Source of the DNA: Escherichia coli
GTDB lineage: Bacteria > Pseudomonadota > Gammaproteobacteria > Enterobacterales > Enterobacteriaceae
DNA: 64,000 nucleotides
Assembly: GCF_003334305.1 (NCBI RefSeq)
Contig: NZ_QOWS01000013.1
Direction: 5' to 3' (one strand)
The position numbers and the translations under genes were made by a program. The notes under the pieces were generated by a model. That model was given only the letters and a program-made list of their open reading frames with translations, ran no database searches and was not told the DNA's origin. Shown here piece by piece: positions 11,288 to 11,534 of this stretch. Each line of letters opens with the position of its first letter. Position 1 is the stretch's first letter.

Positions 11288-11406
11288 AATCTCGCGCTAA
11301 CAACCTGGAATCGAGCCGTCATACTACGGCGCAACGCCCTATAAAGTAAACGATGACCCTTCGGGAACTTCAGGGTAAAATGACTATCAAAATGTGAATT
11401 GTAGCT

Positions 11407-11440
11407 GACCTGGGACTTGTACCCGGGTCGGTATTTTTTT
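11407..11440 (+). terminator. Intrinsic terminator inside the greA leader (consistent with the GraL leader RNA)
   Basis: GACCTGGG...CCCGGGTC hairpin followed by TTTTTTT about 95 nt upstream of the greA ATG. Confidence 0.7.
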
Positions 11441-11534
11441 GCTTCTGGTCCCGGTGAGGAGTTATGCCGGGCAGGCCGAACAGCCGGGGTGGGTGAAGAC
11501 TTGCCCCATCAGGAATATTCAAGAGGTATAACAA

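Follow-up and report, generated by a model that had tools for sequence, protein, structure and literature searches.

The GC-rich hairpin and U-tract upstream of greA is, with a probability that we put at about 97%, the intrinsic (Rho-independent) GraL terminator of the Escherichia coli greA 5′ leader. This terminator is already known and has been characterised experimentally on the identical sequence (Potrykus 2010; Dylewski 2019), and the window, by which we mean the whole 64,000-nt stretch of DNA that was analysed, has its published anatomy: AU7GCU2 after an 11-bp stem. Experiments in the literature, done on this same sequence, have established the promoters, the release of transcripts and how efficiently termination proceeds, as well as autoregulation and how termination depends on the stem; the present work supplies anatomy, coordinates, the match to an RNA family, conservation and covariation, and finds no antiterminator. 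We found no evidence here against this explanation. The amount of GreA, which acts globally in transcription fidelity and against arrest, depends for the most part on how often RNA polymerase reads through the GraL terminator. The terminator itself yields no new biology, everything about it having been published for the exact sequence. What is added are exact coordinates for the published parts, a confirmation of the 3′ end from Term-seq data, a correction to Rfam family RF01769, variants of the terminator tail and a hairpin in the distal part of the leader.

The gene order in the window, ObgE, DacB, GreA, YhbY, RlmE and FtsH, is that of K-12 MG1655 (open reading frame list compared with the K-12 annotation), and GreA is 100% identical to its K-12 counterpart. 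The divergent dacB–greA spacer occupies exactly 247 bp (11288-11534). All 5426 complete E. coli genomes searched have it at ≥95% identity, and one of them carries a second, plasmid-borne copy. The experiments cited below were done in K-12, and the strain of the window is known from its sequence alone. Over 11288-11455, which runs from the dacB start codon past the terminator, the window agrees with MG1655 without a mismatch, so that the published experiments are directly applicable to this sequence. The only two mismatches in the spacer, at 11456 and 11507, both fall in the read-through untranslated region (UTR). By our count the dacB AUG lies at –99 relative to the P1 start, versus –98 as published, a one-nucleotide detail of numbering. 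Table 1 collects the features of the region.

Table 1. Features of the dacB–greA region, in window positions; A1 is the species alignment described in the text
Feature	Position	Strand	Basis or remark
dacB CDS	9854-11287	minus	ORF list
Rfam RF01769 ‘Enterobacteria greA leader’ match	11318-11439	+	127.5 bits; model 1-124 of 124
greA P1 (σ70) –35 hexamer ATGACC	11353-11358	+	promoter scan; invariant in 53 species among the matches listed
greA P2 (σE) promoter GGAACTT - 16 nt - TCAAA	11364-11391	+	pattern scan
greA P1 –10 hexamer TAAAAT	11376-11381	+	promoter scan; nearly invariant in A1
P1 transcription start, A then T	11386	+	greA AUG = +150
GraL RNA, longest P1 form (P2 forms from 11397)	11386-11444	+	published numbering
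GraL unpaired 5′ segment, +1 to +18	11386-11403	+	fold
P2 transcription start, A then A	11397	+	11 bp from P1 start
Terminator stem 5′ arm GCTGACCTGGG	11404-11414	+	fold, covariation
Terminator loop ACTTGTA, 7 nt	11415-11421	+	fold; sequence and length vary among species
Terminator stem 3′ arm CCCGGGTCGGT	11422-11432	+	fold, covariation
A-U7-GCUU tail, imprecise termination zone	11433-11444	+	3′ ends 11434-11444; Term-seq peak 11439
Rest of greA 5′ UTR, read-through transcripts only	11445-11534	+	last 30 nt conserved in A1
Distal GC-rich hairpin, 8-9 bp	11486-11507	+	fold; just 5′ of greA ribosome-binding site
Shine-Dalgarno AGAGGT	11522-11527	+	within read-through UTR
greA CDS, 158 aa	11535-12011	+	ORF list; K-12 annotation

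An earlier note, made from the sequence alone, had described a hairpin of GACCTGGG (11407-11414) and CCCGGGTC (11422-11429) followed by T7 (11434-11440), and had placed it in the dacB–greA divergent spacer upstream of the greA start. A script check of the letters bore out all three coordinates, and the hairpin (11404-11432) does lie between dacB on the minus strand and greA on the plus strand. The core was exact, but the stem is longer than the eight base pairs then described, with 11 pairs formed by the two arms in Table 1, seven of them G-C. Directly 3′ of the stem on the transcribed strand stand A (11433), the T7 run and GCTT (11441-11444), together ATTTTTTTGCTT, which gives seven U within 8 nt after the stem; hairpin and tail lie 95 nt 5′ of the greA ATG. 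A GC-rich stem-loop with a U-tract directly 3′ of it is the anatomy of an intrinsic terminator. The folding energy of the hairpin is –21.4 kcal/mol, whereas 200 dinucleotide shuffles average –10.4 ± 2.6 kcal/mol and none of them folded as well (z = –4.18). A role on the minus strand, as a dacB-related terminator, was considered and dismissed, since transcription of dacB leads away from the spacer and the hairpin lacks a following T-run on that strand. A simple scan with a terminator-like consensus returned five matches in a 2-kb stretch, where 2.5 ± 1.7 are expected in shuffled sequence. Since such matches are common by chance, we place the weight on the Rfam match, on presence in all 5426 genomes and on covariation across 53 species among the matches listed. 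The scan also flagged, on both strands, a short hairpin within the greA coding sequence (11773-11788), which is probably a chance match.

The σE promoter consensus consists of GGAACTT and TCAAA. The pattern GGAACTT-N15-17-TCAAA occurs a single time in 64 kb, with 0.02 occurrences expected, and its position is that of P2. The P1 hexamers are separated by a 17-bp spacer and agree with the consensus at 9 of 12 positions (promoter scan), their assignment being deduced from the mapped +1. That start is placed at 11386 because the greA AUG is +150 from P1 (PMC6829880), or 11535 – 149. P1 depends on σ70 and P2, as shown in vitro, on σE, and their starts are 11 bp apart (PMC2836576). The initiating dinucleotides used were ApU for P1 and ApA for P2, in agreement with AT at 11386-11387 and AA at 11397-11398 of the window. 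Judged by their letters, the elements of two overlapping promoters with starts 11 bp apart are in place, and promoter activity is taken from the literature. Further upstream are two invariant blocks, ATACTA (11321-11326) and AGTAAA (11345-11350), which on the minus strand read TTTACT-18 bp-TAGTAT with a variable 18-bp spacer. They form a plausible candidate for a divergent dacB promoter (–35 TTTACT, –10 TAGTAT, predicted start near 11313), back to back with greA P1; alternatively, AAAGTAAAC could be an UP-like element for P1.

Published experiments describe an intrinsic terminator within greA's leader, with an 11-bp stem and AU7GCU2, that stops two-thirds of transcripts (PMC2836576). The earlier note had proposed that part of the greA transcripts would be cut to a short leader RNA, and this two-thirds termination, measured on the identical K-12 sequence, agrees with it. 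The note had also named the short RNA as GraL, and the name stands: the 11-bp stem, AU7GCU2, the layout of P1 and P2 and the distance to the AUG all match the published GraL. Termination efficiency is ~66% in vivo and ~60% in vitro and is constant through growth; mutations in the stem alter both efficiency and precision, and GraL has been detected in vivo by northern blot (PMC2836576). The released RNA is 49-59 nt long from P1 and 37-47 nt from P2 (PMC6829880). Transferred to the window, the published numbering puts the start of the stem (+19) at 11404, and chains of 49-59 nt from P1 end at 11434-11444. The earlier expectation of termination at the T-tract was right as to the place; the ends are spread over ~10 nt rather than gathered at one site, with individual ends mapped to ± 2 nt (PMC2836576).

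An independent view of the 3′ end comes from Term-seq. The short RNA expected to end near 11440 has a counterpart in a published Term-seq 3′ end at MG1655 3328811(–), 96 nt 5′ of the greA start (Adams et al. 2021, PMC7815308, Supplementary files 1 and 3), which in the window is the sixth T of the T7 run, at 11439. Read counts for it are ~65,000 in one growth condition and ~61,000 in the other, with the terminator sequence printed alongside; the Rho score is 0.67, the entry for a significant Rho termination region reads ‘No’, and the intrinsic terminator score is 5.2, where values ≥3.0 suggest intrinsic termination (PMC7815308). A literature search pairing GraL with Term-seq gave no match. Conway et al. 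2014, searched for RNA-seq evidence of GraL, names it in the reference list only.

Conservation was followed in a species sample obtained by scanning for greA starts, with one genome per species, and limited to genera in which GreA begins MQAIPMT. The greA-start pattern gave many chance matches in unrelated phyla, and loci were kept where GreA was >50% identical to that of E. coli. This left at least 56 loci and at least 53 distinct Enterobacteriaceae upstream regions, which were aligned with MAFFT (alignment A1). A hairpin with a U-tract lies 73-106 nt 5′ of greA in 53 of 53 distinct upstream regions among the matches listed. Across the 53 species of A1 among the matches listed, the 11 stem pairs are 98.5% paired, and compensatory changes occur at 4 of the 11, with 24 cells changed on both sides. 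None of 500 shuffles reached the observed pairing and covariation scores, and registers slid along the alignment were 18-56% paired, again among the matches listed. In nine of nine further Enterobacteriaceae genera tested, the leader passed the RF01769 threshold, with 68-126 bits. One uncultured Enterobacteriaceae genome has a wholly different hairpin.

The tail is less uniform than the stem. Among the matches listed, A-U7/8 was found in 15 of 53 regions (Escherichia, Citrobacter, Salmonella and Intestinirhabdus) and U4-C-U4/5 in 37 of 53, including Enterobacter, Klebsiella, Kluyvera, Kosakonia, Pluralibacter and Mangrovibacter. The A-interrupted tail of E. coli is therefore the minority form among these matches. 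The A-U7 tail, which the literature links to imprecise termination, is in this light a clade-specific variant of the commoner U4-C-U4/5. Outside the family, the leader of the gammaproteobacterium Aliagarivorans taiwanensis (GreA 79% identical) carries an unrelated hairpin, GCTGGCCATC…GATGGCCAG with T8, 46-75 nt 5′ of greA (locus L041), and gave no RF01769 match. This hairpin agrees with the published view that terminators in greA leaders are widespread and lineage-specific (PMC2965389).

The same species comparison bears on a second way of reading the locus, in which the hairpin is mainly the terminator of an independent gene for a trans-acting sRNA, GraL, with nudE as a target, and the lowered greA expression is a by-product of read-through. 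Overproduction of GraL shifts more than 100 transcripts and improves fitness, a scrambled control being without effect (PMC2836576), and a trans effect on nudE and synthetic-lethal partners have been reported (PMC6829880). Two strong promoters firing into a 66% terminator would, moreover, be an odd means to a constant level of GreA. These trans effects, however, come from overproduction, and GraL from a single copy is barely detectable on a northern blot (PMC2836576). GraL is needed in cis, together with catalytically active GreA, for the autoregulation of GreA, scrambling of +1 to +18 weakens that autoregulation, and the cis role has been argued to have evolved first (PMC6829880). The likely pairing region, +7 to +18, is poorly conserved across genera in A1, unlike the stem and U-tract, among the matches listed; the conservation of +1 to +6 is accounted for by TCAAA, the –10 element of P2. 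We consider it doubtful that the sRNA is the main role, and a trans activity is in any case compatible with the hairpin being the terminator of the greA leader.

A third reading would make the leader a classical attenuator or riboswitch-like element, in which an upstream structure competes with the terminator and senses a signal. It draws on the Rfam match itself, which runs over the full length of the model (E = 1.5e-24, above the gathering threshold of 60 bits) and includes three helices upstream of the terminator, 15 pairs in all, spanning 11318-11388. It also draws on Naville & Gautheret, who stated that an antiterminator is detectable in each cluster of greA/rnk leaders (PMC2965389) and whose work is presumably the source of RF01769, and on the fact that 11318-11444 (127 nt) can be folded, at –34.8 kcal/mol. 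The mapped starts at 11386 and 11397 nevertheless leave the first 68 nt of the model (11318-11385) 5′ of both, and with them the 5′ halves of the upstream helices lie outside the RNA. The enterobacterial ‘greA-leader’ sequences had been drawn from the boundary of the upstream gene to the terminator, start sites being unused (PMC2965389). In 53 species among the matches listed, the upstream helices show no compensatory change at any of the 15 pairs, and their measures equal those of shuffles; every substitution in them breaks pairing, leaving 7, 31, 9 and 9 unpaired cells at four pairs among the matches listed. The invariant blocks of the 5′ part of the model coincide with promoter hexamers. 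From these alignments, the 5′ 68 nt of RF01769 look like promoter DNA that the family model draws as RNA helices, and the terminator hairpin would be the sole helix of the family supported as RNA structure across the 53 species among the matches listed. At its other end the model stops inside the U-tract, whereas real GraL 3′ ends reach 11444, so that a full-length match in the window goes with model boundaries that differ from those of the mapped RNA.

The transcribed leader leaves little room for a competing structure. For +1 to +36, the part before the 3′ arm of the stem, the fold has –0.2 kcal/mol and is weaker than in 200 of 200 shuffles; the fold of 11318-11444 is ordinary (z = –1.67, 12 of 200 shuffles as good) and retains the terminator. 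With 18 nt before the stem and a fold of –0.2 kcal/mol, the mapped leader therefore has no possible antiterminator, which is consistent with the published constancy of termination at ~60-66% through growth (PMC2836576). Folding and covariation revealed neither an antiterminator nor a sensing structure in the transcribed leader, and an attenuator or riboswitch is accordingly very improbable here.

Slighter still is the chance that true termination is not involved and that paused or arrested polymerase, or processing by nucleases, gives rise to the short RNAs. Ends spread over 10 nt do resemble nibbling or pausing, and one band seen in vitro was pause-like (PMC2836576). In a purified system, however, the short transcripts are freed into the supernatant from bead-bound templates; they are insensitive to GreA and GreB, Gre factors having no effect in vitro, and are the same in rnc and rne mutants, so that this explanation has been tested and rejected in the literature (PMC2836576). 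That the hairpin merely happens to stand beside a T-run and is functionless has a negligible probability: the simple scan does give ~2.5 hits per 2 kb of shuffled sequence, but the stability of the fold (z = –4.2), the full-length RF01769 match, the compensatory changes in 53 species among the matches listed and direct published experiments all speak against it.

Taking the element as the GraL terminator, we can set out how it works. Two overlapping strong promoters, P1 (σ70) and P2 (σE), start transcription, and the nascent RNA consists of an unstructured stretch of 18 nt followed by the 11-bp GC-rich hairpin. RNA polymerase then lets the transcript go within A-U7-GCUU, at some ten adjacent positions and most strongly at 11439, about two-thirds of transcripts becoming GraL and one-third reading into greA. 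Basal termination is constitutive, because the leader has no alternative fold. Catalytically active GreA raises termination in vivo, a negative autoregulation presumably exerted via an accessory factor; the factor is invoked because GreA has this effect in vivo and not in a purified system (PMC2836576, PMC6829880). The released GraL also acts in trans, nudE being its reported target (PMC6829880).

Read-through transcripts carry the remainder of the 5′ UTR, which outside its conserved last 30 nt varies in sequence among species. In 43 of 53 regions among the matches listed, compared with 20% of shuffles, a hairpin of at least 5 bp ends 27-32 nt 5′ of the AUG, and the native distal hairpins fold on average at –11.8 kcal/mol versus –9.3 kcal/mol for cross-species chimeras. 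Folding sequence by sequence, a chimera control and a positional test were used because MAFFT puts the arms out of register between genera; RNAalifold predicted no pairs in the last 58 nt of the UTR for the 53 species among the matches listed. These comparisons give moderate support to selection on pairing in the distal hairpin, and only moderate because most of the arms are G-runs paired with C-runs. Position 11507 is C in the window and T in K-12, which makes the outermost distal pair G-C here and G-U in K-12. The GraL papers PMC2836576 and PMC6829880 do not discuss this hairpin. In three Mangrovibacter loci (L023:7094-7151(–), L065:829-886(–) and L086:1059-1116(–)), an extra hairpin with T6-7 (…GTCCGGGGCGTTTTTTTATAATGAGG) lies directly 5′ of the greA Shine-Dalgarno sequence, and it is possibly a second terminator-like element of the greA leader in that genus.

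Next after the distal hairpin, and before the Shine-Dalgarno sequence, comes a ACAGGAAUG-like block that is conserved; it is CAGGAAT (11510-11516) in the window and ACAGGAATG in most other genera. The block contains GGA and might, speculatively, be likened to a CsrA-type binding motif; in a whole-word check, greA occurred neither in a Salmonella CsrA transcriptomics study nor in a CsrA review. We think it unlikely that the read-through UTR, with its distal hairpin, ACAGGAAUG-like block and Shine-Dalgarno sequence, is a second control point. If it were, the P3 and P4 primer-extension ends, which their authors consider post-transcriptional (PMC2836576), could mark sites of processing that the distal hairpin shields, and the distal region could bind a translational regulator (CsrA-type, by way of GGA) or the greA accessory factor. 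When the full 5′ UTR is folded, UGCUUCU (11440-11446) pairs with AGAGGUA (11522-11528) in seven pairs, two of them G-U. This predicted pairing is possibly an anti-Shine-Dalgarno interaction in read-through transcripts, for which covariation is uninformative because both sides are nearly invariant. A small open reading frame in the UTR (ATG at 11464, 10 codons, TGA at 11494-11496, preceded by GAGGAG) was rejected: the spacing from GAGGAG to ATG is just 3 nt, and in A1 the region is variable, has indels and conserves neither the ATG nor the frame.

Other features of the window were noted in passing. Between the convergent greA and yhbY genes, 12056-12078 forms a palindromic hairpin of 10 bp without a mismatch, AAAAGGCCGC-nnn-GCGGCCTTTT, with T-runs on both strands, and we therefore read it as a bidirectional terminator. 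A Term-seq 3′ end at MG1655 3328197(+) (PMC7815308) corresponds to window position 12053 and fits the end of yhbY. Rfam matches above threshold were also found at 18092-18175, 21959-22032, 22124-22224, 26923-26993, 28506-28620 and 28850-29021; they comprise two tRNAs, the rimP leader, naRNA4, the ribosomal S15 leader and SraG, as expected for this region of E. coli.

Among known systems, the closest is the GraL terminator of E. coli K-12, which is the same element: stem, tail, P1 and P2 and the distance to the AUG are shared, and there is no difference within the element. Riboswitches and classical attenuators resemble it in having a terminator in the 5′ UTR that yields a short RNA, which may act in trans, and limits the downstream gene. 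They differ in relying on an alternative fold controlled by a ligand, ribosome or protein, which the greA leader does not have, and in the sense of the response, since the effector GreA raises termination rather than relieving it (PMC6829880). With canonical intrinsic terminators such as lambda tR2, the greA leader has in common a GC-rich stem-loop, a U-tract and factor-independent release (PMC2836576). In contrast to them, its 11-bp stem is unusually long, a length found in 12% of 148 terminators surveyed, and an A interrupts the start of a U-tract within which transcripts end over ~10 positions (PMC2836576).
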